IMG/VR virus record: IMGVR_UViG_3300029258_001885
Span: 1-51,501 of that record
Strand: one strand, 5' to 3'
From: a virus
Lineage: Duplodnaviria > Caudoviricetes
DNA: 51,501 bases
A program made the position numbers and the translations under genes. Position 1 is the first letter of the stretch. Each line of letters opens with the position of its first letter. Below, piece after piece: positions 2,567 through 50,915 of this stretch. The notes under the pieces were generated by a model that was not told the DNA's origin, searched no databases, and worked only from the letters and a program-made list of their open reading frames with translations.

Positions 2567-3307
2567 TTATCTTTTAAACATCGCTATGCCGTAGGCGTTT
2601 GAATCAGCCTGTCCTGACACGTACATGCCTGACAGGATGGCTTTGTTGCACTCCTCACACTTCCAGCATTGGCCTTTGCCCAGCCTCATGCCTGTTGACT
2701 GGACACTCACGGACCAGCCTATGAGCAGGTAGGTGGATGTGTTGACAGCGTCATTGCAGACCCAAAATCCCCTGAGGTTGGGCAGGATGTCTCCAGAGGA
2801 TATGGCAGCCTCAGCGCTTACACCGTCAGTAGTCTTTGAAATGTCTGTATGGCTGGTGTCGCCGTCTGCTATGTCGGTTGTTGCTCCATAGCCGACATTG
2901 GTGATTGTGAGCGTATCGGTCACCCTTGTGATGTCAAATGGAGTACCGCTGATGGCATCCATGGCCGTTTCGGTGTCGGTACAAACCTGCTCGCCGGTGT
3001 CATCGGCTGAGATATCAACCTCCACAAGGGTAGCGCCAGATACGGTGGGGGCACTGGATCCGTCATCAACGTCATACCACACACCGTACTTGACGGCGTC
3101 AAGGGCACTGTAGATGACAAAGTACTTGCCCCCAAGGTTGCCCGAGGCGTCAGCCCGACACTGTACACTACTGATCTCCTGTACCTCAAGGTTGGTGGAC
3201 CCACGTACAAAACCCGTCTGTTTTGCTGTCTGGTTTTTGTCGTAAATCTCTGCGAATGCAGAGGTTGCAAAAATAAGCGTTGTCAAAATAACTGCAAATG
3301 GTCTCAT
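2567..3307 (-). CDS. secreted protein: signal peptide + virion-decoration-like domain + Cys-rich beta domain
   Basis: MRPFAVILTTLIFATSAFA is a Sec signal with AFA cleavage site. The C-terminal ~80 aa is paralogous to 3334..3717 (CNDAVNTSTYL identical). Confidence 0.75.
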   Translation of the reverse strand: MRPFAVILTTLIFATSAFAEIYDKNQTAKQTGFVRGSTNLEVQEISSVQCRADASGNLGGKYFVIYSALDAVKYGVWYDVDDGSSAPTVSGATLVEVDISADDTGEQVCTDTETAMDAISGTPFDITRVTDTLTITNVGYGATTDIADGDTSHTDISKTTDGVSAEAAISSGDILPNLRGFWVCNDAVNTSTYLLIGWSVSVQSTGMRLGKGQCWKCEECNKAILSGMYVSGQADSNAYGIAMFKR

Positions 3308-3333
3308 GGTAAAACCCCCTTTAAATTGTTTGT

Positions 3334-3717
3334 TTAATTTTTGTATTGAAAAATGGAATATCCGTTGTCCGCTGCCTGTCCCTCAACCTTCAAAAGCTTT
3401 AATATCGAGGGCTTGCAGTTTTCGCATACAAAGCATTGTCCGGGGGCGAGCCTTATGCCGTCATCTGATACGTCGGTATCCATACCCAAAGCGAGGTATG
3501 TTGAGGTGTTTACTGCATCATTGCATACATCAAAACGGTAGATACCACCAAGTACGCTTGCAGACGGTATGGCTGCTGCAGTGGTCGTACCAACAGTTGC
3601 GTGGTACGGGGTTACGGACTTGATTTTTGTATTTTCTGCAAACCATGCAGCATTGGCTGCAGGGGCAAGCAATACGGCAAGTCCAACGATCAGTGCGATT
3701 TTTGTCTTTTTAAACAT
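3334..3717 (-). CDS. secreted small Cys-rich beta protein
   Basis: GGAG RBS before ATG 3717; MFKKTKIALIVGLAVLLAPAANA signal peptide; paralog of the 2567..3307 C-terminus. Confidence 0.75.
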   Translation of the reverse strand: MFKKTKIALIVGLAVLLAPAANAAWFAENTKIKSVTPYHATVGTTTAAAIPSASVLGGIYRFDVCNDAVNTSTYLALGMDTDVSDDGIRLAPGQCFVCENCKPSILKLLKVEGQAADNGYSIFQYKN

Positions 3718-3754
3718 TTTTAAATCTCCCATGGTGCAAAAGGTTGTGAAAACA

Positions 3755-3783
3755 ATAATATTTAAAAACCCTGTAGTTTACAA
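3755..3783 (-). promoter_or_regulatory. candidate sigma70-type promoter for the two secreted paralogs
   Basis: TTGTAA (3783-3778) - 17 nt - TATTAT (3760-3755) on the minus strand; overlaps a weak hairpin plus T5 ending the upstream gene. Confidence 0.5.
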
Positions 3784-3790
3784 CAGGTCA

Positions 3791-4135
3791 TTAAAGTGAT
3801 AGCAGCAGGCCTATCCATACCCCCAAACCTACTCCAACCACAGTACCACCCACTACAAGCACAGGGTCTTGATACCACTCCAAAGGCTTGCTCCTCAGTC
3901 TTTTTATGTAATCATGCGTGATATCAAGCTCTGCCTGACACTCCTGACATTCATACAGCCTGTTTGACAATATCCTGATTGATGCAGGGGCATAACAGCG
4001 GCAGTCAATCTGCAGGTCCAGACACTCTTTGGGTCTGATATCCCTGTACTCAAACTCAGCCGTCCCCATTGGTTTTGCGACTGCCGGCAGAGTCAAGGAC
4101 GTCATTAATATGGTCAACAGGATCCTTGTCAGCAT
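3791..4135 (-). CDS. spanin-like lysis accessory protein (signal peptide + C-terminal TM)
   Basis: N-terminal signal, Cys-containing coiled region, C-terminal hydrophobic helix; overlaps the upstream Rz-like ORF. Confidence 0.45.
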   Translation of the reverse strand: MLTRILLTILMTSLTLPAVAKPMGTAEFEYRDIRPKECLDLQIDCRCYAPASIRILSNRLYECQECQAELDITHDYIKRLRSKPLEWYQDPVLVVGGTVVGVGLGVWIGLLLSL

Positions 4136-4334
4136 GTTTGTCTCTCATCTCCAGTTTTTTATGCGCGACCCTCTTTTCGTATTCCGCCAGTGCCACAGTT
4201 GCCTCAAGACTTTTGGTTTTGGCCTTGAGGTATGCCGTGTAGGTCACAAGGGCCGCAGGAAGTATGGTCTCCAGCAACCCTGCAATTTTCAAGCACAGAC
4301 GTGCCCAGACTACAGGCTCAGTAATTTTACCCAT
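4056..4334 (-). CDS. Rz/i-spanin-like membrane protein
   Basis: N-terminal hydrophobic segment then coiled coil; located in the lysis cluster. Confidence 0.45.
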   Translation of the reverse strand: MGKITEPVVWARLCLKIAGLLETILPAALVTYTAYLKAKTKSLEATVALAEYEKRVAHKKLEMRDKHADKDPVDHINDVLDSAGSRKTNGDG

Positions 4335-4692: not shown

Positions 4693-4693
4693 A

Positions 4694-5248
4694 TCATCCT
4701 CCCTGTTTTTTGTTTTGGTTCAGCATCAGCCAAACCCCTTCAATACCGTATTTTTTATACAGCTGCTGGATGACATACATGTCAGGCAGCCCCGCAAGCT
4801 GGTAATGGACCAGCTCTTTAAACCTTCTGTTCCGCCCGTACCACCTCAGCCCCACAGACTCCATTATCGGTCCCAGCTTTTTGTAAAGCTCAGTGGGCTC
4901 CCAGGTCCACCTGCCATCGACATACATGACAAGATCGGCAGCCAGCCCGTAATTGTGCATTGACTCACCGGGTTTGGCATTTGTTATGACATTGCCGCCC
5001 TTGGTCCTGCCCCTTTTCCACAGCTCCCCCTGCCTGGGCCTGGATCGATATGTTTCAAAAATCCTGACTGGTATTTCAGCCTCATGGGCAATTTTAATGC
5101 CCTCAAGCATTTTGGTCTTGAATGGCGGGTATAAAAGGTCCAGGGTGTCCGTTCGATCAAGAATAGCCTGCCAGTGTCCATTTACAATCTGCATAAAAAC
5201 CTCATGAGTCAGACAGTCTGGCCGGGAGCTCTGACTGCTTTTGGACAA
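4694..5248 (-). CDS. endolysin, M15-family (L-Ala-D-Glu type) zinc peptidase
   Basis: ETYRS..RQ.EL...GRT..G.VITNAKPG.S.HNYGLA.D and a downstream W.G...H motif; exact start uncertain. Confidence 0.85.
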   Translation of the reverse strand: MSKSSQSSRPDCLTHEVFMQIVNGHWQAILDRTDTLDLLYPPFKTKMLEGIKIAHEAEIPVRIFETYRSRPRQGELWKRGRTKGGNVITNAKPGESMHNYGLAADLVMYVDGRWTWEPTELYKKLGPIMESVGLRWYGRNRRFKELVHYQLAGLPDMYVIQQLYKKYGIEGVWLMLNQNKKQGG

Positions 5249-6976: not shown

Positions 6977-7909
6977 TCAACAGTTTTTTTTCGCAAATGT
7001 AAGCATGTCTATGCCACACTTGACGCCAGTAGTATCGTCATTTAACTGAAACTTTATTTTCCAGGAATTGTATATCAGCTTGCCTACAACATCAGAGCAT
7101 TGACACACGGACTCCGCACCATCATACCCGCGCCCAAATATCATATTGCCAAATCTGAACAGAGTGACATCCACAGTGTAAAGGTCATAGCCTCCATCCT
7201 GATCCATGTTTCGGGTTAACACGTTGTCCCACTTGGCGTAGTCAAACCAGCCTTGGTTGCCTACACTGGGTACCGGTACACACTTGAGTATGTCCGTATT
7301 GGTCAATTTGGCCGTCAGGTCAAGACTATATGACCCGGTGTCCTCGGCTACAGGTATGATCTTGTAGTTTGTAATATTGTAGTCTCCAGTTTCCTCAACA
7401 TGCCCGGTAGTTGCAGGACAGATCAGCCAGGCATCAAGAGAGTCAGCCAGTTTTGCAGACTCCCATATCGCAGTGGCCCCAACAGCATACCAGTGTTGTA
7501 AAAGCTGGAAGTACTTGACATCATTTGTGGCATCAAGCTTGAGTATGTCCCCGTCTCCATATGTGCCATTGGTGATATTGTCGGCCCTGCCCGTTGGATA
7601 CTGGGTGTACCCTGCAGGTACACGGTTTACGGCCATGTACGGCAGGCTCTCAGCCGTCACCGGTATCGGTGTGTTTGTCAGCATTTTTAGATGGTTTATC
7701 TGGTCATCATAGTCAGTAAAGTACTGGGCACCGTCACCTATCTGGAGGTCATCGTCATAAATCTTTGCACCAACAACACTGTTGTTGGCCCATCTGAGCC
7801 TCTCATTGTCAGTGATTGTGTGCTCCTCAGCAATTGCAAGGTCCTTGCCCGTGCCCAGTCCTGTGATTGCAGCACCACTGATGTTTTTTACCAGACAGGT
7901 TGTGTACAT
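6977..7909 (-). CDS. putative virion accessory protein
   Basis: 310 aa, beta-rich T/G/D composition; N-terminus resembles that of 7912..9564. Confidence 0.55.
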   Translation of the reverse strand: MYTTCLVKNISGAAITGLGTGKDLAIAEEHTITDNERLRWANNSVVGAKIYDDDLQIGDGAQYFTDYDDQINHLKMLTNTPIPVTAESLPYMAVNRVPAGYTQYPTGRADNITNGTYGDGDILKLDATNDVKYFQLLQHWYAVGATAIWESAKLADSLDAWLICPATTGHVEETGDYNITNYKIIPVAEDTGSYSLDLTAKLTNTDILKCVPVPSVGNQGWFDYAKWDNVLTRNMDQDGGYDLYTVDVTLFRFGNMIFGRGYDGAESVCQCSDVVGKLIYNSWKIKFQLNDDTTGVKCGIDMLTFAKKNC

Positions 7910-7911
7910 GA

Positions 7912-9564
7912 CTAAACCCCTGTGTCTATGTTTGTTTGGTTTATGACTGTGAGCTGTGGCTTGTTAAAGCTGCCTGAGACCACCTTGCACACAATGAGGT
8001 CCCCCTTGTCCACAGCCTGAGTCTGCTCAAACTGATTAAAACTCTCATTGCTAAAGGAGATTGTAAAAAGCGGATTGACAAGGTCAGTGGACAGGTAAAA
8101 GCCCATCACACCTGTATTGAGGGCTGTGGTCTGCAGGCTGACGGTCCTTATAAAGCCGTCCTCAGGAATTGGGAATGGTGTAAGATCCATCGACTGGCCC
8201 TGTCTCTCCATGTATCTGTCTGTAGATGCCAGGGCTCCATATCCGCACTCCCAAAGGTATCTGTCCTGTGTCTCACCCAGGTACCTGAGGTCATCAAACA
8301 GGTAAAGCACTGCCTTGGGCTCATTGGTGTATGAGGTGTCAGTCCTAAAGATGAGCCTGTATAAAAAGACATACTCCTGAAAAGGGAACTCACCGGCGAC
8401 GTCTCTGGCCGTCTCTGACAAAACCAGTGCGGCATTGGTGGAGCCCACCCTGCCTGCAATTGCCACAATCGGCTCATCAATACTGTTTGTGGCAAACACA
8501 AACATGTTGCAGTACCCACCATTGGGTACGTTGTCCAAACTAAAAACTCCTGCATCAAGCTTGTTGTACTTTATGGTGTTTGTGCCGTCCCAGATGACTG
8601 CATAGTCTGTGGCGTCAATCCTCCTGATGTCGTCAGTGCCCGACACGTAATAGATGGGCACCTTTGCAATCGGGCTGAGTATCTGCTCAAAGGGGTTGGA
8701 TGGTGATGCTGCATCAGCAATGGAGTGCTTTAAATCCTCATCATGTATTGCTCCATTGCCCAGCCCAAAGGTGGCATGTGAGTCAAGGCTGCCGTCTCCT
8801 CCTGATATAAAATCACCAAGCAAAAAATCATTGTAGGGGTCATCGAGCTGGGTAAAAGTGGTCCTATGATGGTACCTGTGCTCACTCCATGACCACTGCA
8901 GCCCATGCCTCTCATCCTCCAGCCATATGTGCTTGTTGTTTGTGGCGTCCCAGTAGATAGCAGCCACAAAGGCATGGGTCTCAAAGTCCCAGATGGTCTG
9001 GCTGGCTGTGAGTACTCCTGCTGTTGTGTAGTAAAAAAACCAGACGCCCTCAGTGTCAGTGATGACCACGGACTCTGATGACGTTTTTGCAAACCTGTGA
9101 CCCCTCTGCCAGACATCAAAGCTGGCACCTGTTGGGGCAATTGTAAAGGTCAGTGTCCCATCATTAAAGCTTATGGTGGTATCTGTGTTGGTCTCAAAGC
9201 CTGTTGGGTCCTTTAAAAGCTGCCTAAAGTCGATCTCCTCAAGACCCTGCTGGAGTGTCAGGGCCTCATAGTCACTTGCAGACCTGACCGTCCTGTCCAG
9301 CATGGGCGTGCCGATACCGTAGTTGAAAAGCCTGTGCCAGCCCTCGTACTTGTCGGTGTAGTCGGCAGTGCCGTCATCGTCCTCTGCATAGTAGAGGCTC
9401 CCGGCGTCAAACCAGCCCCACAGCTGGGAGTCATTGAGCCTGTAAAGGATGTCCTTGTCTACAGCCTTGTACTCACCGGCTGGCCAGGTCTCACCCGTGT
9501 TGGTGTGCTCAAGGTCTCCACCCGTGGTGTTTTTCAGATACTTGTCAGGGTCAATCTGGCTCAA
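7912..9564 (-). CDS. putative tail fibre/spike protein with C1q/TNF-like C-terminal domain
   Basis: 550 aa, beta-rich; C-terminal ...AVDKGD... domain shared with 9561..10094. Confidence 0.6.
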   Translation of the reverse strand: MSQIDPDKYLKNTTGGDLEHTNTGETWPAGEYKAVDKDILYRLNDSQLWGWFDAGSLYYAEDDDGTADYTDKYEGWHRLFNYGIGTPMLDRTVRSASDYEALTLQQGLEEIDFRQLLKDPTGFETNTDTTISFNDGTLTFTIAPTGASFDVWQRGHRFAKTSSESVVITDTEGVWFFYYTTAGVLTASQTIWDFETHAFVAAIYWDATNNKHIWLEDERHGLQWSWSEHRYHHRTTFTQLDDPYNDFLLGDFISGGDGSLDSHATFGLGNGAIHDEDLKHSIADAASPSNPFEQILSPIAKVPIYYVSGTDDIRRIDATDYAVIWDGTNTIKYNKLDAGVFSLDNVPNGGYCNMFVFATNSIDEPIVAIAGRVGSTNAALVLSETARDVAGEFPFQEYVFLYRLIFRTDTSYTNEPKAVLYLFDDLRYLGETQDRYLWECGYGALASTDRYMERQGQSMDLTPFPIPEDGFIRTVSLQTTALNTGVMGFYLSTDLVNPLFTISFSNESFNQFEQTQAVDKGDLIVCKVVSGSFNKPQLTVINQTNIDTGV

Positions 9565-10094
9565 AACTCCCCCTTTATGACAAGGCCCACAACCGGGTTT
9601 TTGGCAGACCCGGAGGTGACCTTGACGGCAAGCTCGTCCCCCTTGTCCACAGCATTGCTGGTTGTGTAGCTCTGTATTTTTGTCCTCTGCGAGGTCAGTG
9701 ATATGGACAGTATCAGCACAAAGGATGCTCCCGACCTCTCGTACACGCTGACTGTAAAGGTGTTGGCATCCTCATTGGCCACAAAGACCTCAACTATCTC
9801 ACCATCAACGGGTACAATCCTGCCGGCAAGATTTGACGGTACCGAGTCGTTTAAAAGCCATGCACTTGATACGCTGCCGGACTTGCCCCAGGTAAAGCCG
9901 GGGCTGGCAGACTGGTCAATCCTCTCGTCCAGCTCCCTGAGTGCTGGACCCACCTGCTCACTGGTCAGACTGGAGCCCGTTGGGTCAAAGGGTATGCCCT
10001 CTGCCTCGGGCATGTGCCACCAGTCCTGCCCACCACCGTGGGCCGGGACTGAGACAAAAAGGAGCACCAGCAGCAGTATTAGTCTTTTAATCAC
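9561..10094 (-). CDS. signal-peptide-bearing C1q/TNF-like fibre-tip protein
   Basis: MIKRLILLLVLLFVSVPAHG signal; C-terminal domain paralogous to 7912..9564. Confidence 0.6.
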   Translation of the reverse strand: MIKRLILLLVLLFVSVPAHGGGQDWWHMPEAEGIPFDPTGSSLTSEQVGPALRELDERIDQSASPGFTWGKSGSVSSAWLLNDSVPSNLAGRIVPVDGEIVEVFVANEDANTFTVSVYERSGASFVLILSISLTSQRTKIQSYTTSNAVDKGDELAVKVTSGSAKNPVVGLVIKGEF

Positions 10095-10462
10095 TTGAGC
10101 TCCTGCACTATCACGTCATTGGATGCCGTCCCCGCTATCAGGTAAACCCCCACGTCACCCACCGGTATCACCACCACCTGCCTCTTGTAGATGGGCACAC
10201 CCTTTGTGGATCCGGAGGTTGTCACACCCGTGGGTCCATAGTAGACCACCACGCTGGAGTCATTGTACATGAGAAGCCTCTGGCGTTTGGCGTCCCGGGT
10301 ACCCCCAACCTTGGCCTCAACCTGTGTGGTACCCACCGACACCACGGCAGCCTGGTACCCGCGATCATGGGTGTCTGCACGGTCTGGATTGTATGCCATG
10401 CCTCCATGGATTGTGGGGGCCCAAAGCAGGCACAGCAGCAGTACTGGCCAAAGGTATCTCAT
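10091..10462 (-). CDS. signal-peptide-bearing small beta-sandwich protein
   Basis: MRYLWPVLLLCLLWAPTIHG signal; R..L..YN.S...VY.G..GVT..G.TKG pattern shared with the 10838 gene C-terminus. Confidence 0.65.
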   Translation of the reverse strand: MRYLWPVLLLCLLWAPTIHGGMAYNPDRADTHDRGYQAAVVSVGTTQVEAKVGGTRDAKRQRLLMYNDSSVVVYYGPTGVTTSGSTKGVPIYKRQVVVIPVGDVGVYLIAGTASNDVIVQELK

Positions 10463-10474
10463 GGGAGTCCTCCC

Positions 10475-10786
10475 TCAGCGTTTGTGGGCCTTTTTAAGGG
10501 CTTTTTTCATCTGTCTGGTGGTTTTGGCCCTCTTGACCGTCTTTGGGGCCTGAGGTGGCTTTTTGCCGCCCTGTGGGGCCGTCTTTGAGCGTGCGTGGCG
10601 TCTGGAGACCTCGGCACCGTCGATGGCTGACGCCATCCTGGTCTCAAGGCCCTCGGCCCATTTGAACATGGCAGCTGTAAAAAAAACCTCCTCACCCTCA
10701 AGCTCGCACTTTGAGCGTGCAAGGTACCTGTGCAAAACCTGCAGGTGCTGGTCATCGTGCTCCTGGACCTCTATGTACTTTGGCAT
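10475..10786 (-). CDS. hypothetical protein with basic C-terminal tail
   Basis: AAGGAGG RBS before ATG 10786; K/R-rich tail. Confidence 0.6.
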   Translation of the reverse strand: MPKYIEVQEHDDQHLQVLHRYLARSKCELEGEEVFFTAAMFKWAEGLETRMASAIDGAEVSRRHARSKTAPQGGKKPPQAPKTVKRAKTTRQMKKALKKAHKR

Positions 10787-10837
10787 TTTTGCCTCCTTGG
10801 CAGTAGTGGGGGCCACATGGCCCCATGGTTTAAAGGT

Positions 10838-12951: not shown

Positions 12952-15063
12952 TCAATCAGAGACAGTATAACTTATCGTTAAGCCACCACCGGACGTCTGA
13001 TTGGATAAATTGCCAGCGTGATCATAATGCGTGATAGCAATAGTCCCGTCTGTGTAAACCGTTGCCCTGGTTTGTATAGCGGTGCTTAAAGCATACGAAT
13101 TATAAGCATCAACATCCGGTCGTCCCCAGTCAGGAATTAAACCAGCCGAGCTTTCGACAAAGGAATCAGCCGCATGGGTCAAGGATGAAATAGACGAGAT
13201 TGTAACCATCCTTTCGACCTTGACAATTCTAATACTCCCTCCGGTAAACTCATTGTCCAGTGCAATTTCAGAAACTTTATCACCATAGACATACGCTTGC
13301 GGAAGGTTCTGGGTTACGGGATAGATAGACCAATAGATAGGGTTAACAGGAGCAGATCCTACGCCCTGACGTATTTGAACAGCTCCATTATCAGCCTTTC
13401 CTCTAATTCTTATTGTCTTTTGATTAAAATTAGATACCTCATACAACCCGCAAAGAGTAACGGAGTCTCTTCTATTTGTATTATCTGATTCTTGTCTGTG
13501 TCCTGATTCGGCAATTACAGTGGGGGTAAGATCGCTCAATTCATAAGCTTGCGAAGCGTCGGCAGTTCCGCCTGATCCAACCAAAACTGCGCACACATTA
13601 TAGACACCAGTTCTTCTGGGAGTCCATACAATCCCAGGTAATTCACTTCCGTATCCAGTAACAGTCCCGAAATTATAATTTATTGTTTCAACCAGGTTAC
13701 ACGTCGCATCTGCGGTAAAATCACCATATGCAGTATTAGTTCGGCTCCATATACAAGTATCGTCATGATATCCAGACCACGCAAGAGCAGACGTATCAAC
13801 GCTTACAGCCTTCTGGGAGTCAAGGGGATAACGGTAGACTGAAACAAGCATCTCATCCCATCTTACGTATACATATGCCGTCGAAGCGCCGTCTGCACGG
13901 TTTGCAAGAAGTGTAAAGGTGGTGGTGCCCTTTCCCGAAGTGTATTGAAATTCCGTTTCAATAATGTTTATTTGCGGCCTCTGCTGGTTTGCAAGGGTTG
14001 TGATTCTGGTAACATCCTTTCTTGTGGTTCCGTCCGTTATGCCCCAGTCTACGCTTGAGGTGCCTGCACCTTCATGTGTAAACTGGGCGCGAAATGTAAC
14101 CCGATAATTTCCAGGTTCAAGATTAGAAACCCTTATTCTTGGAATTTGCCCATCATTTGAAGCGTCTGCTATTGCTTTCCCGACAAATACCCTTGGGTTA
14201 TCATCACAATCAGCATCGGCTGAAAAATCATTCCAGTTGTTTGCCGCCTTGCTCCACTGACAATCTGTTGTAGCCACCCATTTTTTGCTGCCGTAAAGCT
14301 CGGTTTCCGAAAGCTCAAAACTGTTCAGATCAGAACCGGCCCACATGTTGTCCACAATTATATCAGCAGCCGAGCTGTTCAAACTCTCTAAACGAAGCTG
14401 CAGATTACCTGATGTTGGGCATGTAAATGCAACACGTGCCTTGAGGCTCTCACCACTTGAAGTGGGCACAAGCTCAAGGACCTCATGCAAAGCATTGGAC
14501 CCATCATAGGCGTATGCAGACATGTGACCTGCTGTGGCACCGTCCCAGCTGTAGTAAAAGGATATTTCGCAATCCTTGCCGTACAGTCCCTTGGGTATTG
14601 CAACAGCATCACTTGTCAGGTACTCACTGGCCGCACTTGGATTCCACTTGAGACTCTGGTCTCCAAACAATTCGGATGTAGTCTCAACAGACTTGACTGA
14701 GGAGCCTGATGCAGTCCAGTTATTGGTGTTTCGAGGCACTTCAAAGTCAGGGTTTTCAATAACGTTTACCTTGTTGCCCGCTCCACCAACACCACCCTCA
14801 CCAAGGGTGGCAATATTTGAATCAGTATCTATTGTCTTTATCTGTTTTGTGTCTACGAAGATTTTAAGATCATTTGCTCCACTGGGAGCACTGGGAGCAC
14901 CTGACTGGTGATACATCTCAATGGCACCATCACCAGCAGTACCGGATATCACCGCCCTGTTGGCGTCAAGCTCCCTGCCCACACTCACATCACCTTTAAA
15001 ATCCTTGCCGCTTGCTGTCATACAGACCATAAGGGCAATCACTGTTATAAATAGATATCTCAT
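12952..15063 (-). CDS. large fibre/receptor-binding-like protein with N-terminal signal peptide
   Basis: MRYLFITVIALMVCMTASG signal; CBM-like N.IENPDFE...W domain; two tandem Cys-paired repeat domains. Confidence 0.65.
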   Translation of the reverse strand: MRYLFITVIALMVCMTASGKDFKGDVSVGRELDANRAVISGTAGDGAIEMYHQSGAPSAPSGANDLKIFVDTKQIKTIDTDSNIATLGEGGVGGAGNKVNVIENPDFEVPRNTNNWTASGSSVKSVETTSELFGDQSLKWNPSAASEYLTSDAVAIPKGLYGKDCEISFYYSWDGATAGHMSAYAYDGSNALHEVLELVPTSSGESLKARVAFTCPTSGNLQLRLESLNSSAADIIVDNMWAGSDLNSFELSETELYGSKKWVATTDCQWSKAANNWNDFSADADCDDNPRVFVGKAIADASNDGQIPRIRVSNLEPGNYRVTFRAQFTHEGAGTSSVDWGITDGTTRKDVTRITTLANQQRPQINIIETEFQYTSGKGTTTFTLLANRADGASTAYVYVRWDEMLVSVYRYPLDSQKAVSVDTSALAWSGYHDDTCIWSRTNTAYGDFTADATCNLVETINYNFGTVTGYGSELPGIVWTPRRTGVYNVCAVLVGSGGTADASQAYELSDLTPTVIAESGHRQESDNTNRRDSVTLCGLYEVSNFNQKTIRIRGKADNGAVQIRQGVGSAPVNPIYWSIYPVTQNLPQAYVYGDKVSEIALDNEFTGGSIRIVKVERMVTISSISSLTHAADSFVESSAGLIPDWGRPDVDAYNSYALSTAIQTRATVYTDGTIAITHYDHAGNLSNQTSGGGLTISYTVSD

Positions 15064-24186: not shown

Positions 24187-24193
24187 AAAAACC

Positions 24194-32016: not shown

Positions 32017-32077
32017 TACATCCTCCGGTTGGTCCTGACTTAAGTTTGTACCCAACAGGAGGGTTTTGTCAATCAGC

Positions 32078-34458: not shown

Positions 34459-35901
34459 TTAATTATTGTCCTGGTCAAAGTCTAGCTCCTCAACTGTCTC
34501 ATTGTCAAAGAATCCATCCTCATCCTCAGAGCCACCTGCCACACGGGCATACTCGGCCACCGGGTCCTCTGTGACCTCTGTGATGTCCTTTCCCTGCATG
34601 GCTGCCTCCAAAAGCTTTTCGGCCTCCTCAGCCTTGGCTGACTGGTATGCCGTGGACAGGGCCAGCATCAGGGCTGTCACACAGTCATCATGCTCGCCTT
34701 CGGGAGCGCTGTAGGTATGGTTGCCCGTCTTTGTGACGCTCAGCTCATACGATGCCAGCTCATGCTCCAGCACCTCAATTCTGGGAGCCCTGTGCCAACC
34801 ATCCTCCAATGCCATGGTGGCCCTTGTCACCATCTCACCCTTAAGCTTGTTGGTAAAGGTGATGGGTGTGATTGCCACATCAAGGTCAAAGTCTGCCAGA
34901 TACTCCCCAAAGGCCTCGCCCACACCAGTGGCGTCATACCTGAGGATATGGTCCCCATCGAAATACGTTTTTAGATACCTCTCAAGTCTGAATGCCTGCA
35001 GCTGATACTTGACATGTCTAAACCGGCAAAAGCCCACACACATGCCGTTGGTGGCCACAGAGTAAAAGACTGTGTAGTCCTGTTTTTTGGCCACATCCAC
35101 CCCATGTATGATTGATCCCGACCGGAGGGACTCATTGGGATGGATCCAAAAGCGCACATTGCCCTCAGGCACCTGCAAGGACTCATCCCAAACCCCCGAG
35201 AGGTCTCCAAAGGTTGACCCGTATGAGGTAAAGATTGCTTTATAGTACTGGTCAAACAGGTGTTTTGGCAGGAGTCTTTTGGCGTTGGCTATGGCCTCGG
35301 GTCTGACAAAGGGGCTGCAGTCTGTCTGCAGCTGGGCCCAACAGAAAAAAGGATCACCAGACTTGGCCAGCCTGAAGACGTCATAGTACCAGTTAAACCC
35401 ACGGGGGGTGCCTGTAATGATGCCAAGACCCATGGTCTGTGTGATGGTGGTAAAAAGGGAGTGCCAGACCTGTCTCACGATTTTACCGGCCTCGTCCAGT
35501 ACAAACCGGTCAATGGCCTCACCCTCAACGGTGACCTCGGCGTCACGTCCGTGCATAAACTTGATAAAGGAGCCGTTGGCCAGGCGTATCTCAAGCTTGC
35601 CGTCCACACATCTGGCCAGACCGTCGATGTTGACCATGGCCTTTATGTATCTGTAGGCTATCTGGCATTTTTGATAGGTTGGTGCAACCCAAGCACAATA
35701 CAAGCCCTTGTAGGTCAAAGCCTCTGTGGTGAGCCACAGGGAGGCTCCCATGGTCTTGCCGGACTTTGTGCCTGCAGGCCCCACAAGTACCTGGGCCTCT
35801 GGATACATCTCAGGCCAGTCTGTAAAGACACGCTGGTGCTCATGGGCTCCAGGCAGCCTGATGCGTACCTTTGAGGGCATGGTGCCTGAGTCCACGTACA
35901 T
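34459..35901 (-). CDS. terL: terminase large subunit
   Basis: Walker A AGTKSGKT, Walker B FVLDEAG, GTPRGFNWYY, nuclease GVDVAKKQDYTV...D.TGVG...HDDCV. Confidence 0.95.
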   Translation of the reverse strand: MYVDSGTMPSKVRIRLPGAHEHQRVFTDWPEMYPEAQVLVGPAGTKSGKTMGASLWLTTEALTYKGLYCAWVAPTYQKCQIAYRYIKAMVNIDGLARCVDGKLEIRLANGSFIKFMHGRDAEVTVEGEAIDRFVLDEAGKIVRQVWHSLFTTITQTMGLGIITGTPRGFNWYYDVFRLAKSGDPFFCWAQLQTDCSPFVRPEAIANAKRLLPKHLFDQYYKAIFTSYGSTFGDLSGVWDESLQVPEGNVRFWIHPNESLRSGSIIHGVDVAKKQDYTVFYSVATNGMCVGFCRFRHVKYQLQAFRLERYLKTYFDGDHILRYDATGVGEAFGEYLADFDLDVAITPITFTNKLKGEMVTRATMALEDGWHRAPRIEVLEHELASYELSVTKTGNHTYSAPEGEHDDCVTALMLALSTAYQSAKAEEAEKLLEAAMQGKDITEVTEDPVAEYARVAGGSEDEDGFFDNETVEELDFDQDNN

Positions 35902-35902
35902 G

Positions 35903-36661
35903 TCAGTCCTCTTTTTTACGTCTCTTTGGTCTGGGTCTTGTCAAGTCGTACCTTTTGGAGACCCGTGAGTCTTTTAAAAGCCTCTCTTGCCTGCTGAGGT
36001 ACAACTGCATTGCCGAGGGCGTTAATTTGGTCCACTGGGATGGGTAGCTCATTACAGTCTCGTAAAAGACCACCTTTGGCAGTAAACCAGTCTTTTGGTA
36101 AACAAATGTTGGTATCTCCAGGCTGTCCCTGTTGCGTCTCTTTTTGAAATTCCAAACCTTCCAGTCCCGGGCCATGGGCGTGGGCAAGGCAAAACCATCT
36201 GTCTCTCTTGTGAGGGGCTCCCACCTCAAAAGCGGATACAACACCCCATCGACAATCATACCCTGCATTGGCCAATTGATACCCAACGGTGTGCAGCCCA
36301 CGTGTCCTGATTGCTGGGACATTTTCAAAGAATATGAATCTGGGTTTGATTTTTTTGGCCAACCTGATGACATCAAAAAATAATCCGCTTCGCTCGCCAT
36401 CCAAGCCATCACCAACCTTGACAATACTAAGGTCCTGACATGGCCACCCAGCCGTAATGATGTCCACCAGGCCCTCAAGGGGTTTGCCTGTAAAGGTTGT
36501 GACATCGTCCCAGATGGGAGCGTGTGGGAGGTCTCCTGTCTGCATCCTCTCCTTGAGCACCTCCTGGCAGTAGGGGTCAAGCTCAACGTATGTGATTGGT
36601 CTGACCCATGGGGACAGGGCAACTGCAAGTCCTCCAATGCCGGTAAATAGATCCAGCCCAT
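35903..36661 (-). CDS. C5 methyltransferase beta chain in overlapping alternative frame (start uncertain)
   Basis: Open for 252 codons over the MTase; WP..GM..DG..Y, LPTP.ARDWK and F.E.VM.YP..WT (motif IX-like). Confidence 0.7.
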   Translation of the reverse strand: MGWIYLPALEDLQLPCPHGSDQSHTLSLTPTARRCSRRGCRQETSHTLPSGTMSQPLQANPLRAWWTSLRLGGHVRTLVLSRLVMAWMASEADYFLMSSGWPKKSNPDSYSLKMSQQSGHVGCTPLGINWPMQGMIVDGVLYPLLRWEPLTRETDGFALPTPMARDWKVWNFKKRRNRDSLEIPTFVYQKTGLLPKVVFYETVMSYPSQWTKLTPSAMQLYLSRQERLLKDSRVSKRYDLTRPRPKRRKKED

Positions 36662-36668
36662 TTAGCAC
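35916..36668 (-). CDS. DNA cytosine-5 methyltransferase, alpha chain (motifs I-VIII and X)
   Basis: DLFTGIGG, AGWPCQD, FFENV, GAPHKRDR, ALGNAVVP; motif IX not seen. Confidence 0.9.
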   Translation of the reverse strand: MLNGLDLFTGIGGLAVALSPWVRPITYVELDPYCQEVLKERMQTGDLPHAPIWDDVTTFTGKPLEGLVDIITAGWPCQDLSIVKVGDGLDGERSGLFFDVIRLAKKIKPRFIFFENVPAIRTRGLHTVGYQLANAGYDCRWGVVSAFEVGAPHKRDRWFCLAHAHGPGLEGLEFQKETQQGQPGDTNICLPKDWFTAKGGLLRDCNELPIPVDQINALGNAVVPQQAREAFKRLTGLQKVRLDKTQTKET

Positions 36669-38966: not shown

Positions 38967-39734
38967 TCAAACCTCCAGTATTCTTTCTATTTTTTCGAGT
39001 GTGGCATCCATTGACCTGGTGCCGTGTATCCATTTTTGAAACCTTGACAATGCCCCAAGGGCCAGTACCAGATGATCAGGTACGTTGGATTGTCTGGCCC
39101 ACGGATAAAGACAGACCCATGGGACGATCCTGTAACAAAAGTCGCCGTTGCGCATGCCACCTGTTGGCCCGGCTTTGGTCTTCATGCCCTCCACGGGATA
39201 TCCCAGCAGTATTTCTGCAAGCCTCTGTGGCAGTCCGTTTACGTACCTGCTCTTGATGTCCAGCCTGCTTGTCATCTCCTTGACCGAGTGCATGGTGCCG
39301 CGGTTCAGCTTTTTTGCGATCCATTCCCTTGGCTTCAGGCCGGCGTGCCTGAGAAGAAAAAGCGTCTCGTCCAGAGACCAGCTGTCATTGCGGCGTGTGT
39401 CCTTTCTCAAGTGGTCGTATTTGGGGTCTCGGTACGATACTGTCTGAATGGACCTAAGCTCGGACCTTGTCAACCCAAACCTCTCCATTGTCTCCTCAAA
39501 GGTGTGCGTCACAAAATATTTCATTGCAGGCATCCTGAGATGCTTGTGCTTGACTATCCTCTGCTTGCGGTAACAGGTGTTTTTCAGACCCAGCCTTGTC
39601 GCCTCGCATGCGACCTGGTTTCGGCCCAGACCCATGATTTTGGCAATCTCCGGGTTTGTGTGGTCTCCTGACTCCACAAGGACTGTGAGCAACAGCCTTT
39701 CACTGTCGGTCCATTTTTTATGTTTTCTTCTCAA
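38967..39734 (-). CDS. multi-HTH DNA-binding protein
   Basis: KKWTDSE..LL...EIAKIMG....V...A.RLGL and WS..E..FL...IAKKLNR repeats. Confidence 0.65.
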   Translation of the reverse strand: MRRKHKKWTDSERLLLTVLVESGDHTNPEIAKIMGLGRNQVACEATRLGLKNTCYRKQRIVKHKHLRMPAMKYFVTHTFEETMERFGLTRSELRSIQTVSYRDPKYDHLRKDTRRNDSWSLDETLFLLRHAGLKPREWIAKKLNRGTMHSVKEMTSRLDIKSRYVNGLPQRLAEILLGYPVEGMKTKAGPTGGMRNGDFCYRIVPWVCLYPWARQSNVPDHLVLALGALSRFQKWIHGTRSMDATLEKIERILEV

Positions 39735-40306
39735 AAAACCACCCAGTCCACGTCAAGGATTGAGAATTCCCTGTCATAATGATATCTGTCCCATGCCTCA
39801 TCCATGACCATCGCGTCACGTATTTCCTTTTTCATGTCCCTTTTCAATTGTGAGATACGGGTTTCGGTAAATCCAGTGTACTGAGCCACTTCGGCCTGCG
39901 TGGCCTCGTTGATGATTTGCTGGAGGATTTCCTCATGGATGCCTTTTCCAAATCGGACACGAGCTGTCCAGTCCGGTAGTTCTGGTTCCAGACCAGCTCG
40001 GTCAGGTGCGACAGGTTCATGCTCAATGACTCCACCATCGCCATGTCCGGCACCTGATCCTCCGAGAGCCACTGGGCGATGTCTTGAGCCTGACTTGAGG
40101 CGACCGACAGGAGTCCTTGTATTTCCATAGAATTCCCGTAGAAAATCGACAAATAGAAGTCTAAGAGAGAAAGTTCCTCTTATGACATGTCCGATATACG
40201 CTTCATGTGCGAAGTCTTCAGCGTCTTGTCCATACCCCTTGTAGATTGCATATCTTTTTGCCTTATCAAGAAATTTTTTGAGATCATCGCCGTCAAGAGC
40301 ATTCAT
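39731..40306 (-). CDS. RNA polymerase sigma-factor-like protein
   Basis: Region-2-like DAEDFAHEAYI...FVDFLRE and region-4 HTH TQAEVAQYTGFTETRISQL. Confidence 0.7.
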   Translation of the reverse strand: MNALDGDDLKKFLDKAKRYAIYKGYGQDAEDFAHEAYIGHVIRGTFSLRLLFVDFLREFYGNTRTPVGRLKSGSRHRPVALGGSGAGHGDGGVIEHEPVAPDRAGLEPELPDWTARVRFGKGIHEEILQQIINEATQAEVAQYTGFTETRISQLKRDMKKEIRDAMVMDEAWDRYHYDREFSILDVDWVVF

Positions 40307-44488: not shown

Positions 44489-44525
44489 TTGTTTAACAAT
44501 CTACATTTTATCTAAGGCGTGTCAA
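44486..44525 (-). promoter_or_regulatory. sigma70-type promoter overlapped by operator-like motif copy 3
   Basis: TTGACA (44525-44520) - 16 nt - TAGATT (44503-44498); GTATTGTTTAACAAT at 44486-44500. Confidence 0.55.
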
Positions 44526-46277
44526 GTCCAAGACATTGCCGCTGTTGTCCCCGCTGATGATTTTTACATCCCTGACACATTCGGCAAAACATCTGGTCTT
44601 TTTGTCGTAAACCATCCAAAGCTTGTTGTTTATCCTGTCCACACCAGACTCACGGGTCTTTTCCATGTGCAGCTGGATAAAGTCCTCGACAGGGTTGAGG
44701 TTTAAATAATTGTCGGCATCCTGATATGTCTGGCTGTAACCCTTCTGGTTGCCCGAGTTTACCCGCTGGCTGGAATCCACCTTGTGGGGCTGCCAGACCA
44801 CTATGACATGGACCATGTAATGAGTGGCAATCCTTATGAGCTCGCCATAGGCTGCAAGTTTGTCGCTGTTGCAGTCTCCTGTAATATGGTCAAGATTGTC
44901 CAGTATCAGGAGCCTGGCCCCCTTTGCAATCATTGACTCAAACTCAGACACGCACTCGGATGGTTTGACCCTTTTGCCCTCAAGCCTGGATATCATAAGC
45001 CGGGAAACCGTTTCCTTGTACTGCTCAGGCTTGCAGATGCCACGTACCACGTCTTTTATCTTCGGTTTCAGTGCCTTGCGGGTACCCTCCACGCTTATGA
45101 GACCCACACCGGTACCTGTCATTGCTGCATAAACTGCAATCTGGTTGCAAAAGCTGGTTTTGCCGGTACCGCTCTTCGCCAAAAGCCCTGTAGTCTCCCC
45201 ACCCCTGAGCCCTCCATTGAGCATGTGGTTTAGACTGTCAAAAGGCGTCTTGCATACAAGCACCACATTCTCTGGCTCATCCTCCCTGTCCATGTCCATG
45301 TCCATGTAATTGCCGGACTGGATACTGCAACCTCCAGTCAGCCGTGTGAGGCCCGTACAGGCATCCTCAACGTCTCCAAGGCAAAGCGAGGGGTTTTGTA
45401 CCAGCCACTCATTGAGGTCCTTGTAGGGCATTTTGAGCGTCCCTACACGATCCGGTCCCAGCTGGGCAAAAAACCGCTCCACAGCCCTCTGGCCTGCCTC
45501 ATCCTCATCCATTGCCAGCCACACCTCCCAGTCATCGGGTATGTACCTCAGCATGGAGTCCACGTGTATGGAGCCGGCACCGTTGGGCAGACTAAAGGAA
45601 TTTTCAAGGCCCAGCTGCCAGCCCACCATGGCATCCCATTGTCCCTCAAAAATAACTGCACGCTTTTTTGGATCTTGCAAATTCAGCAGATGGTTGCCTA
45701 TCAGCAGACCTGTGGGAGCCCCTTTTTGGTCAAACCAGTCAGTGCAGTTTTTGGAGTCCCGGTCAAGACATACACGTATCCTTGCATTGACAATGCCCCA
45801 CGTTCGGCCAGTCCAGGCATATATTGGCCATCTCAGAGCCTCCGGTCCCTTGGTGGACACCCTCCAGGCATCAAGGGTACGGTCTTCGATACCCCTGAAA
45901 CGGCAATACTCCAAAAGGTCCGGGTGATGCCCACAGGTCACAGGTCTCCTCTGTATGCCAAAAAACCTCTCAAAGTCCACAGGCCTGATGGGGTTGGCAT
46001 CGTCCTTGTACCTGTCGTTTAAAGGCAAGGGTGCACCAAAATCCCTTGTCAGGGTAAAGAAGTTGCCAACAGCCCCACATCCGAAACACCTCCACAAACC
46101 CGTCTCCATGTTTATCTGGCTGGAAGGGTTTGAGGCAGAGTCACCCATGCACTTTGGGCACGGTCTGAATCTCAACTCCTTGCCGTAGGCCTTGACCCAT
46201 TTGGCATGCCTTGACAAAAAAGCTGCAACCTCACCCTCTCTGGGCGATCTGTACTCACGCCTGGACTGCATTGACAT
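44508..46277 (-). CDS. primase-helicase (T7 gp4/Twinkle-like: Zn finger + TOPRIM + SF4 helicase)
   Basis: CPKC...CFGC; FEGQWDA, AMDEDEAG, KDLNE; Walker A AKSGTGKTS; LILDNL; QDADN. Confidence 0.92.
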   Translation of the reverse strand: MSMQSRREYRSPREGEVAAFLSRHAKWVKAYGKELRFRPCPKCMGDSASNPSSQINMETGLWRCFGCGAVGNFFTLTRDFGAPLPLNDRYKDDANPIRPVDFERFFGIQRRPVTCGHHPDLLEYCRFRGIEDRTLDAWRVSTKGPEALRWPIYAWTGRTWGIVNARIRVCLDRDSKNCTDWFDQKGAPTGLLIGNHLLNLQDPKKRAVIFEGQWDAMVGWQLGLENSFSLPNGAGSIHVDSMLRYIPDDWEVWLAMDEDEAGQRAVERFFAQLGPDRVGTLKMPYKDLNEWLVQNPSLCLGDVEDACTGLTRLTGGCSIQSGNYMDMDMDREDEPENVVLVCKTPFDSLNHMLNGGLRGGETTGLLAKSGTGKTSFCNQIAVYAAMTGTGVGLISVEGTRKALKPKIKDVVRGICKPEQYKETVSRLMISRLEGKRVKPSECVSEFESMIAKGARLLILDNLDHITGDCNSDKLAAYGELIRIATHYMVHVIVVWQPHKVDSSQRVNSGNQKGYSQTYQDADNYLNLNPVEDFIQLHMEKTRESGVDRINNKLWMVYDKKTRCFAECVRDVKIISGDNSGNVLDLTRLR

Positions 46278-47715: not shown

Positions 47716-47720
47716 CAAGC

Positions 47721-47755: not shown

Positions 47756-47776
47756 AACACAGTGGCGACTATCTCC

Positions 47777-48349: not shown

Positions 48350-48384
48350 TTTAATCTCCTTTGTTTTTAATTGGTTGTAGGTTT

Positions 48385-49155: not shown

Positions 49156-50098
49156 CCTTGTCTCCTCTGTGTATTGGGTTTAGGTACTTGTTTATAAATG
49201 ATCCAGAATCAAGTGGCTCCTTGCCGTTGGGTATGTACTGGCCACCAAGCTGGTCAGTGCCGTTGGCACACAGCGGAAGCCATTCACACGGTCCCCACTT
49301 GCCCATGCACTCACCAGGATTGCAGTCCCAGCCCGTCAGGGTGTGGGTCTTAAACATCTGTCTGATACGCCTGTCAAGCCTGTCCTTTTGTAGACTGTAG
49401 GCTGTCAGCTGGGCTGGCCCAAAAGCCACTGGTATCTCACGGTAAAAATCGGCGTTACGCTCACCACAGTACAGATCAAGCACCCTATGGGCATAGTCTG
49501 TGCCCGTCTCCTTTTTGGTCCTTTTGGTGGAAGTCTTCAGGGTCTGGCGGTACTTGATGCCTTTGGGCAGGATACCCTCAGAATTCAACAGGACATTGTA
49601 GTTTAAAAGCTGCTCATCCAGCCTGAGGGCCATTTCAAGATTGGGATCCAGCCGTGAGGTTGTCTTGTCCTCAATCACCCACTTGCAACCATCAATTTCC
49701 TGGATACAGTCAATATAAGCCACCTCAGTGTCCGTACGTATCTCATACTCACAGGCCGCAGTCTGTTTTGGGTCATCCTTGTAAAAAATCCCATATCCTA
49801 AAATGTAGGCATTGAGTCTGGACTGCTCATCCTCAATTGCATCAAGTCCCAGGTCAAACTCCTGCAGGTCTTGAATCAATTCCTTGTTGGCCTCATTTAT
49901 TGCCACAGGCACCTTGTGGCCCTGTCTGATCAGATATAGTGCCTTGTGGTATGCCCTGCCTATCGCCTGAGCCTTTGAGCCACCTGTCTTGGGCTGAATG
50001 CCGGCTACATACCTGTAAAAAACTTTGCGTGGACAGGACTTGTAAGCTGCCCTCATGCTTGCACTAATTAAAGGAGTGCCACCTGTTGGGTCTGTCAT
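49148..50098 (-). CDS. PD-(D/E)XK (Cas4/RecB-like) exonuclease
   Basis: SAS...Y..CPRK..YRY, G.AYH, ID...EDKTT, QL.NY, C-terminal C...CEW..LC. Confidence 0.85.
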   Translation of the reverse strand: MTDPTGGTPLISASMRAAYKSCPRKVFYRYVAGIQPKTGGSKAQAIGRAYHKALYLIRQGHKVPVAINEANKELIQDLQEFDLGLDAIEDEQSRLNAYILGYGIFYKDDPKQTAACEYEIRTDTEVAYIDCIQEIDGCKWVIEDKTTSRLDPNLEMALRLDEQLLNYNVLLNSEGILPKGIKYRQTLKTSTKRTKKETGTDYAHRVLDLYCGERNADFYREIPVAFGPAQLTAYSLQKDRLDRRIRQMFKTHTLTGWDCNPGECMGKWGPCEWLPLCANGTDQLGGQYIPNGKEPLDSGSFINKYLNPIHRGDKDE

Positions 50099-50117
50099 GC
50101 TTGTACCTCCATCTGGG

Positions 50118-50168
50118 TTGTGTTAAACAATACTCGACACTCATACCCCATACGGGTATGATTGGCAA
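50118..50168. promoter_or_regulatory. divergent promoter region with operator-like motif copy 4 and an inverted repeat
   Basis: TTGTGTTAAACAATAC at 50118-50133; rightward TCGACA-17-TATGAT (50134-50162); leftward TTGCCA-17-TATGAG; TCATACCC/GGGTATGA inverted repeat at 50141-50161. Confidence 0.55.
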
Positions 50169-50188
50169 TACACAAGGAGACCCAAAGG

Positions 50189-50713
50189 ATGAGGATTGCA
50201 GGCATTGACCCTGGCAAAAAGGGTGTTGTTGTTGCCCTTGACTCTGATGGTGGAGGCATGAGGATACACAAGCTCGGCTTTGACTCGGCTGGCACCCTTG
50301 TCTGGGACTGGTTTTACAAGTTTACAAAGGATGCAGACATAAACCTTTTTATTGTGGAGAGACCCAGAGGCAGGGGAGGATTTACAGCAACCAGCACCTT
50401 TGCCCTTGGTGAGGTCTGTGGACAGGTCAGGCAGGTGGTTGCCCAGACCCAGATACCATGGAGACACGTGGACCCCAAGGTCTGGCAGGAAGTCATCCAC
50501 AAGGGCATACCAGCCAACAGGTCCCCAAAGATAAAGTCACAGGCTGCCTATGAGCAGCTTTACCCACATAAACCACTGCCTCTGACACCCAGGTCCAAAA
50601 AGACAGATGACAACCTCATTGACGCCCTGCTGATTGCTACATATGGAGTGCTCAAGTATGGAGGAGGCAAACTGCAGAGGTGGGACCTCTGCAAGGAGGA
50701 TGAGGATGCTTGA
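50189..50713 (+). CDS. RuvC-like Holliday junction resolvase
   Basis: MRIAGIDPGKKG, IVERP, F..G...G, P.VWQ, D.LIDALLIA.YG. Confidence 0.88.
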   Translation: MRIAGIDPGKKGVVVALDSDGGGMRIHKLGFDSAGTLVWDWFYKFTKDADINLFIVERPRGRGGFTATSTFALGEVCGQVRQVVAQTQIPWRHVDPKVWQEVIHKGIPANRSPKIKSQAAYEQLYPHKPLPLTPRSKKTDDNLIDALLIATYGVLKYGGGKLQRWDLCKEDEDA

Positions 50714-50915
50714 GGATATACCGGCATGGAGGATTAGTGTAATTATTTTGGGTCTGTTTTTTATGAGCATTGTCCTGTGGGTACTCTGGTTGAGATGGAT
50801 GACGCAAAAAAGACCTATTGGGTACCGCGAGTCCAAAATGCTCAAAAAACGGCTCATGTGCTCTGTTTATGATCCTGAGAGGTTATTGGTGGAAGATGAC
50901 GAGCAAACGATGTAA
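50706..50915 (+). CDS. small membrane protein
   Basis: One strong TM helix (ISVIILGLFFMSIVLWVLW); coupled to RuvC. Confidence 0.55.
   Translation: MLEDIPAWRISVIILGLFFMSIVLWVLWLRWMTQKRPIGYRESKMLKKRLMCSVYDPERLLVEDDEQTM

Follow-up and report, generated by a model that had tools for sequence, protein, structure and literature searches.

Genome organization and host

The window analyzed here is the whole 51,501-nt contig of the IMG/VR record IMGVR_UViG_3300029258_001885, which is classed as a virus and consists of this contig alone. It is a near-complete genome of an uncultured siphovirus-like tailed phage, and the subject of this analysis is its deep deficit of the trinucleotide GAA and its reverse complement TTC (together, the GAA/TTC motif). 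Genes were called by our own heuristic with a self-trained codon model, and the composition-based figures given below are independent of these calls. The minus strand carries almost every gene (2567–50098). The genome encodes a tape measure protein (20689–24219), a capsid/protease (30454–32106), a portal (32078–34447), the large terminase TerL (34459–35901, minus strand; PHROG 2, E 4e-28), which served to find and place relatives, a primase-helicase (44508–46277), and an AAA_24 ATPase. The recognized nucleases are a RuvC-like Holliday-junction resolvase (50162–50713, plus strand; PHROG 1770, E 1.8e-20), a PD-(D/E)XK recombination-type nuclease, and DUF968. Just upstream of TerL lies the gene of a C5-cytosine DNA methyltransferase of 250 aa (35916–36668, minus strand; PF00145, E 9.9e-35; M.HhaI, E 1.3e-17) with the methyltransferase motifs I, IV, VI, VIII, and X and a target-recognition region of just ~40 aa; a 252-aa open reading frame (ORF; 35903–36661) overlaps this gene in a different frame.

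The plus-strand module begins at 50162, exits the contig end, and resumes at position 1. It includes a DUF7666 gene (51028–51501, plus strand; Pfam DUF7666, E 3.3e-9) and a gene for a Dam-type N6-adenine methyltransferase (437–913, plus strand; Pfam PF05869, E 4.5e-12). The DUF7666 ORF extends beyond the contig end and seems to pick up again in 2–199 with a 1-nt offset, and a repeated ‘SVGDSV’-like peptide motif spans the 51501/1 junction. The apparent continuation of this last ORF at the contig start points to a genome that is probably circular or circularly permuted, with one base too few or too many where the ends meet. Neither an exact terminal repeat nor tRNA genes were detected in the contig. 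A prophage with host flanks was ruled out by the extent of the virus record, the phage-type genes at both ends (Dam, DUF7666), the apparent continuation of the last ORF at the start, and the lack of tRNA genes.

The endolysin (4694–5248, minus strand) is of the L-alanoyl-D-glutamate peptidase/VanY-M15 type: it matches PHROG endolysin families (E 6e-20), exceeds the cut-offs of both Pfam VanY and Peptidase_M15_4, and shares 38% identity with Ply500 of Listeria phage A500 (tblastn). An enzyme of this type implies a host with murein, that is, a bacterium. An archaeal host had been considered on account of the TerL genome matches, 29 of 29 of which are proviruses in Bathyarchaeia metagenome-assembled genomes (MAGs; loci L008–L036, 24–42% best-segment identity), and of common AGR and ATA codons; the murein endolysin rules it out, and the terminase lineage seems to be common to bacterial phages and archaeal proviruses. 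Codon usage between 2567 and 50890 is odd for a bacterial phage of 50% GC, with AGR in 587 of 837 Arg codons and ATA in 294 of 820 Ile codons, which may partly follow from CpG avoidance. The phage collection held no nucleotide match, its closest isolate TerL having 31% identity, and a first genome scan for the host gave no match. The runs X1–X7 were compared with the window to see whether changes cluster at residual TTC sites; X1 contained an entire 20 kb stretch with 0 differences and X5–X7 only identical low-depth fragments, so the comparison yielded no variants.

Extent and unit of the GAA/TTC deficit

Between 2567 and 50890, GAA and TTC occur 595 times in 48,324 nt (12.3 per kb). The observed/expected ratio (O/E) from base composition is 0.40, i.e., about 60% of the expected motifs are missing. 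In comparison, the contig ends hold 120 motifs in 2,566 nt and 30 in 611 nt (50891–51501). An earlier sequence-only reading had drawn attention to the avoidance from four hand counts, all of which were reproduced exactly: 3 in 780 nt (10021–10800) and 1 in 540 nt (50161–50700) as opposed to 27 in 540 nt (50941–51480) and 25 in 480 nt (421–900). It had also regarded the avoidance as motif-specific, which agrees with the component dinucleotides: GA/TC (0.91) and AA/TT (1.05) are normal, which makes the trinucleotide the depleted unit. Against a first-order Markov model, GAA/TTC has the lowest ratio (0.42) among the 32 reverse-complement trinucleotide pairs, with CTA/TAG next (0.48), and TTT/AAA is the most enriched (1.43; O/E 1.57). 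The codon remarks of the same reading hold as well, TTC making up 90 of 513 Phe codons and GAA 170 of 852 Glu codons, with TTG/CAA at 1.64 and TTT/AAA at 1.57. The purge is partial: 566 motifs are left in the core genes, where synonymous recoding could reach a minimum of 90. Such a graded loss fits a small cost per site rather than an all-or-none restriction.

Within frames, TTC accounts for 18% of Phe codons, as opposed to a C-ending share of 49–60% for Tyr, His, Asn, Asp, and Cys. The in-frame GAA share of Glu codons resembles that of CAA for Gln (21%) and differs from that of AAA for Lys (43%). The contribution of codon usage was removed by shuffling synonymous codons within each of the 61 core genes, the resampling method that both Robins and Kupczok & Bollback used. 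After shuffling, GAA was still depleted in phase 1 (76 observed vs 137 expected, z −7.1) and phase 2 (103 vs 326, z −19.7), and so was TTC in phase 1 (59 vs 188, z −12.6) and phase 2 (68 vs 128, z −7.2). Taken together, the out-of-frame counts on the coding strand are 179 vs 464 for GAA (0.39, z −21) and 127 vs 317 for TTC (0.40, z −15), and among the 64 out-of-frame trinucleotides these two are the only strongly depleted words that contain neither CpG nor TA. The resampling ratio is 0.40 (316 observed vs 793 expected; 306 vs 781 with a second gene model) and the substring ratio 0.42. Moreover, core intergenic DNA holds 32 motifs in 3,186 nt (~10 per kb). The deficit thus outlasts the codon-bias control and is not confined to in-frame codons, affecting all three phases, both strands, and intergenic DNA, and an artifact of codon usage or of GC at third codon positions is ruled out by its persistence after shuffling and between genes. 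The claimed strand independence is borne out by the nearly equal ratios of GAA and TTC on the coding strand, although nearly all genes share one strand. This equality fits recognition of duplex DNA, and the lack of strand asymmetry speaks against a process acting on single-stranded DNA.

The bases that are avoided

Four-fold degenerate codons were used to count the cases in which the third base, together with the codon that follows, forms the motif. A third-base T that would become the middle T of TTC was found in 24 of 328 cases, as opposed to 541 of 1,752 where no motif forms (odds ratio, OR, 0.18); for the first T, the respective figures were 33/279 and 223/782 (OR 0.34). The G of GAA was likewise avoided (33/765 if the motif forms vs 224/1,431 if not; OR 0.24), and so was its middle A (45/454 vs 250/1,008; OR 0.33). 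Four matched controls that form no motif had ORs of 0.83–1.33. The G before AA is swapped mainly for C (0.61 vs 0.49), not just for A. Since the avoidance at four-fold sites extends to each of the three motif positions, selection on the whole word is favored over mutation of a single base. The avoidance extends to the protein level. Phe followed by a codon starting with C, where TTC is unavoidable, was found 28 times vs 92.9 expected, and the dipeptides Phe-[Pro/His/Gln] 20 times vs 50.1 (0.40); pooling 47 loci of the family gives 0.67 for this dipeptide ratio, and the Tyr control has 0.86.

All eight 4-mers holding GAA are depleted (O/E 0.16–0.59), with z ≤ −6 in each case after synonymous shuffling. 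GAAC/GTTC is the most depleted of them, with 60 occurrences vs 378 expected (O/E 0.16; 0.53 against a second-order Markov model; 0.26 after synonymous shuffling). The other seven range from 0.26 to 0.59, e.g., GAAA 0.59, GAAG 0.42, and GAAT 0.41. The extra loss of GAAC/GTTC may be a second layer over the trinucleotide effect. On either side of the 595 TTC sites that are left, base frequencies match the background, apart from G at −1 (0.10) and G at +1 (0.16, corresponding to CpG). No gapped or palindromic pair of the type GAATTC, TTCGAA, or GAA-N4-TTC was lacking beyond the trinucleotide effect. A longer motif or a classical restriction-modification site (4–8 bp, often palindromic, nearly eliminated) is ruled out by the 3-nt unit, the depletion in all eight 4-mer contexts, the lack of a gapped motif, and the 595 remaining sites.

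Other short words are also rare between 2567 and 50890. CpG has a rho of 0.46, with CA/TG at 1.40, for which the C5-methyltransferase gives context; CTAG occurs 14 times vs 378 expected, and CTA/TAG has an O/E of 0.31.

Mosaic distribution along the genome

Judged from the motif positions, the depleted region spans 2214–50990 on both strands and holds nearly all minus-strand genes together with the plus-strand genes 2214–2528 and 50162–50713. The sequence-only reading had placed the depleted core at 2567–50890; the deficit there stands, but its limits do not, given a motif-rich block at the contig ends (50991–51501 and 1–2213), an ORF at 2214–2528 that is already depleted, and two internal patches that are not. 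The resolvase gene is depleted (1 motif in 552 nt) despite its location on the plus strand. The trait thus goes with ancestry rather than with strand or transcription unit. The most extreme block (7501–10500) lies between the tail fibre and lysis genes and has 8 motifs in 3,000 nt (sliding O/E 0.07–0.11) at a GC content of 0.50–0.57; ORF 9561–10094 within it has zero motifs. The structural genes have ~13 motifs per kb (O/E ~0.4–0.5), and the core genes span 0 to 42 per kb.

The accessory block on the plus strand is motif-rich. Its first part (50991–51501) has a lower GC content and runs on at position 1 if the genome is circular; the rest (1–2213) has 115 motifs in 2,213 nt, a GC content of 0.41, and a GAA O/E of ~1.5. 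In these end genes, GAA accounts for 42 of 51 Glu codons. The second patch (13097–14460, minus strand; GC 0.42–0.48) comprises the C-terminal two thirds of a putative tail-fibre gene (12952–15063). This gene is chimeric by composition, with 26–42 motifs per kb and lower GC in 12952–14500 and 14 per kb in the N-terminal part (14501–15063), and the patch looks like a swapped receptor-binding module. The tail-fibre protein had no match in the phage collection and gave weak leads in the Atlas search, where C1q-type phage fibre clusters scored 0.87, a lead only. The third patch (39301–40306, minus strand) consists of ORF 39731–40306 (24 motifs in 576 nt; 11 GAA vs 4 GAG codons) and the 5′ part of ORF 38967–39734 (13 in 434 nt).

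The O/E of the three patches is 1.0–1.5. Where measured, their GC content is 0.41–0.46 and their CpG ratio 0.65–0.87, vs 0.3–0.5 in the core. The depletion of CTA/TAG is uniform over the whole contig, the GAA-rich patches included, while that of CpG is weaker in the patches. The lower GC, the weaker CpG loss, and the shared CTA/TAG loss make the patches look like unpurged recombinant modules rather than exempt regions. A search for donors found one relative of the Dam gene, with 52% identity, and none of ORF 39731–40306; neither search dates the modules.

Relatives and restriction to one clade

TerL has 267 homologues at E ≤ 0.001, all of them metagenomic, the best non-self one with 61% identity. 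For comparison, 47 IMG/VR loci selected by TerL alignment and the 29 genome loci were used, the relatives being fragments of 4–21 kb. The O/E of GAA/TTC was 0.40 in the core of the window and 0.36 in locus L001, and it ranged from 0.74 to 1.71 in every other locus. L001 has the same codon signature (GAA in 16% of Glu vs CAA in 43% of Gln codons; TTC in 13% of Phe vs TAC in 43% of Tyr codons) and a resampling ratio of 0.43 (32 observed vs 75 expected). L001 is the sister of the window (support 0.984) in a tree built from 67 TerL sequences, and the nearest neighbors of the two have O/E values of 0.86–1.30; the other 65 sequences come from the loci at 0.74–1.71. Loci L041 and L088, which belong to one 53.8 kb contig, match the window in GC content (0.50–0.51), CpG (0.47–0.56), and CTA (0.29–0.37), but their GAA ratio is 1.0. 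A metagenome scan for closer relatives yielded two loci only, with 53% identity, and scans with ORF 7912–9564 and the primase yielded L087–L089, none of which is GAA-depleted. Overall, the trait is specific to one small clade, which fits a host-specific pressure. The C5-methyltransferase was rejected as the cause of the GAA depletion since its homologues in L041 and L070 reside in non-depleted genomes; the respective alignments have 279 and 281 columns, ~40 beyond the 237 query residues covered.

Several relatives have purged other short words. In L038 (10,755 nt), AG/CT has a rho of 0.18, which is deeper than the GAA/TTC depletion of the window; across codon boundaries it was found 100 times vs 393 expected (ratio 0.25, z −22.5). 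The codon choice of this locus is accordingly skewed, with 8 AGR vs 165 CGN codons for Arg, 4 CAG vs 104 CAA for Gln, and 34 CTN vs 184 TTR for Leu. AG/CT is also depleted in L039 (15,543 nt; rho 0.41), GAG/CTC in L053 (21,392 nt; O/E 0.18; out of frame 62 vs 220 expected, z −15), and GAC/GTC in L006 (21,419 nt; O/E 0.44; 98 vs 168). Purging of short words is thus common in the family, the word being lineage-specific, and this fits a diversity of protospacer-adjacent motifs (PAMs). In 21,005 nt of the 98 kb viral contig of L087, the O/E of GATC is 0.00 across 21 kb and that of GAA is 1.6.

Host defense as the possible cause

Kupczok & Bollback (2014; PMC4246573) treated GAA/TTC as the PAM of type I-C CRISPR systems and reported its depletion on both strands, most in those Streptococcus phages whose hosts are of type I-C (median log ratio −0.59 vs −0.05), arguing for PAM-escape selection. 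Table 1 of Vink et al. (2021; PMC8482600) gives TTC as a PAM of types I-C (canonical), I-B, and I-G. Both the I-C assignment of TTC, which the sequence-only reading had given as established, and its depletion in some phages are therefore in print. One published phage was recomputed with the same pipeline, namely S. pyogenes prophage 315.5, which stands first in the legend order of Figure 5 of PMC4246573 and was read as the lowest, the legend not being explicit. Its resampling and substring ratios are 0.61 and 0.68, vs 0.40 and 0.42 in the window. All positions of the motif are avoided in the prophage too, albeit more weakly (OR 0.32, 0.28, 0.41, and 0.67), and there is no extra effect of GTTC (Markov ratio 0.93). 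The window thus carries the same qualitative signature as the published I-C case, about twice as deep on a log scale. The earlier remark that such depth would be unusual for PAM avoidance is supported by this one calibration (0.40 vs 0.61).

The sequence-only reading had proposed long-term selection by a host defense or a mutational process. Selection on the word itself is favored by the avoidance of all three positions, and as its most likely agent we infer CRISPR. The best explanation, to which we give about an even chance, is that a host type I CRISPR-Cas system with a 5′-TTC PAM (canonically I-C; some I-B and I-G) has led to an unusually deep avoidance of this PAM. Each new host spacer would leave surviving phages that are mostly PAM or seed mutants, and each PAM escape would remove one TTC, on either strand, at whichever of the three bases is cheapest to change. 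Fewer PAMs would also mean fewer sites for spacer acquisition. Over the turnover time of synonymous sites, this ratchet would make the motif rarer in every frame and on both strands as well as between genes, and would even disfavor Phe-Pro/His/Gln. Modules gained recently by recombination, namely the accessory block on the plus strand, the C-terminal tail-fibre part, and ORF 39731–40306, would still be unpurged. As a rough estimate, an O/E of 0.4 would hold if the escape loss per PAM were about the neutral substitution rate, corresponding to one escape sweep per some thousands of phage generations, which would not be implausible.

Several points weigh against PAM escape. Our estimate goes no higher because no CRISPR array, spacer, or cas locus was linked to the phage; the sole spacer-type search compared 20 kb of the window with 401 Bathyarchaeia-class genomes, which belong to the wrong domain given the phage’s murein endolysin, and gave 13 chance-level matches (best E 3.2e-4). 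At 0.40 vs 0.61 in the recomputed case, and about tenfold locally, ordinary PAM avoidance may not suffice. The share of GTTC/GAAC among the residual sites is 0.11 vs 0.22 expected, i.e., this context is about twice as depleted as the others, and we know of no fourth-position preference of I-C PAMs that would account for the excess. CTC, TCC, and TTT are weaker variants of the I-C PAM, and none of them is depleted in the window. Moreover, relatives deplete other motifs of 2–3 nt more deeply (AG/CT 0.18, GAG/CTC 0.18), beyond the PAM effects reported in the sources cited here. Finally, dozens of PAMs of 2–3 nt exist, so the match between motif and PAM alone is weak evidence.

The depth of the loss also bears on an alternative which is considerably less probable than PAM escape, namely a non-CRISPR defense that reads GAA/TTC in duplex DNA (an uncharacterized host system, as the sequence-only reading had suggested, or an enzyme that cuts or nicks at very short sites), or else a nuclease of the phage’s own that is directed against host DNA, with the motif avoided in the phage genome. 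The window ratio of 0.40, as opposed to 0.61 in the recomputed PAM case, and of ~0.08 locally would suit it, as would the extra effect of G at −1 and the deeper frame-independent losses of AG/CT in L038 and GAG/CTC in L053, which suggest a strong general pressure on short motifs in the family. Chloroviruses encode nicking enzymes with 3-nt sites, which likewise counts for it. However, the ~600 core sites left would be lethal under an enzyme cutting every site, so that a low per-site action is required; no short-specificity nuclease was recognized in the genome, and a literature search turned up no known system with GAA/TTC specificity. In a family-wide version, which we consider similarly unlikely, an undescribed defense or an own offensive nuclease reads 2–3-nt words in duplex DNA and causes a 2.5- to 10-fold frame-independent purging, with the word differing by lineage (GAA/TTC in the window and L001, AG/CT in L038 and L039, GAG/CTC in L053) and CRISPR PAM escape not being the main cause. 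The main reason for considering it is the depth, with a dinucleotide at 0.18.

Still less credible is a context-dependent bias of mutation or repair, for example a C-to-T change in TTC brought about by cytosine methylation or by a deaminase, or repair of the very-short-patch kind, or else amelioration to a host poor in GAA/TTC. Decay of TTC to TTT would predict the enrichment of TTT/AAA, the highest against the Markov model (1.43), and the window has a CpG rho of 0.46, CA/TG at 1.40, and a C5-methyltransferase. A single-base process, however, does not directly predict an avoidance of the T and A positions that is as strong as that of C/G (OR 0.18 and 0.34 vs 0.24). In place of the G before AA, C is the main substitute (0.61 vs 0.49), not just A. 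There is no strand asymmetry despite almost all genes being on one strand, L041 and L070 lack GAA depletion despite a homologous methyltransferase, and the motif-rich patches, which differ in GC and CpG too, give the impression of foreign DNA rather than of local exemption. These points weaken the explanation, although an apparent avoidance of every position could also arise from second-order selection against hypermutable sites.

Longer restriction- or Dnd-type sites that contain GAA, e.g., phosphorothioation-linked restriction at GAAC/GTTC with the trinucleotide deficit as a by-product, are very improbable: GAAC/GTTC, the Dnd consensus (PMC4507180), is the most depleted GAA 4-mer (O/E 0.16) and some relatives lose GAAC without GAA (L002, 0.56 vs 1.04), but the Dnd motif cannot explain the whole deficit because the other seven GAA 4-mers are depleted as well (O/E 0.26–0.59), GAA/TTC stays below expectation without the GAAC/GTTC counts, GAAC in L001 (0.34) is no lower than GAA (0.36), and the trinucleotide effect accounts for any shortage of gapped or palindromic pairs, which leaves a second layer at most.

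Significance

PAM depletion in phages has so far been reported as a modest and debated effect, and the case of the window is much deeper. It is also a clean one, being independent of frame, strand, and position, reaching the protein sequence, and confined to one small clade, with the unpurged modules as internal controls. If CRISPR is the true cause, natural CRISPR pressure can reshape a whole phage genome, the PAM of the host, and hence its CRISPR subtype, could be read from phage composition alone, and recently acquired modules could be dated by their missing purge. If it is not, the varied 2–3-nt depletions in the family point to an undescribed defense against short motifs.

Comparison with known systems

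The published PAM depletion (PMC4246573) resembles that of the window in the motif and in both measures, the strands agree, and every position is avoided in prophage 315.5. The window differs in that its depletion is deeper (~0.08 locally), reaches the protein level, is mosaic, and includes an extra avoidance of G before TTC. Restriction-site avoidance, as known for CTAG and GATC, shares the frame-independent loss of a word, and CTAG in the window (14 vs 378 expected) is an example. In contrast, the GAA/TTC word has 3 nt and is non-palindromic, and its ~600 remaining sites are more than all-or-none cleavage would tolerate. Dnd phosphorothioation with DndFGH restriction has in common with the window that GAAC/GTTC is its most depleted GAA 4-mer; unlike a Dnd site, the depleted unit of the window is a trinucleotide in all eight contexts. 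CpG is lost through cytosine methylation and deamination, and deaminase footprints occur in viral genomes. The window resembles such footprints in the loss of a short motif, the rise of the C-to-T product (TTT/AAA 1.57), the CpG and TG/CA ratios of 0.46 and 1.40, and the presence of a C5-methyltransferase, whereas it departs from them in avoiding all three positions of the motif without strand asymmetry.

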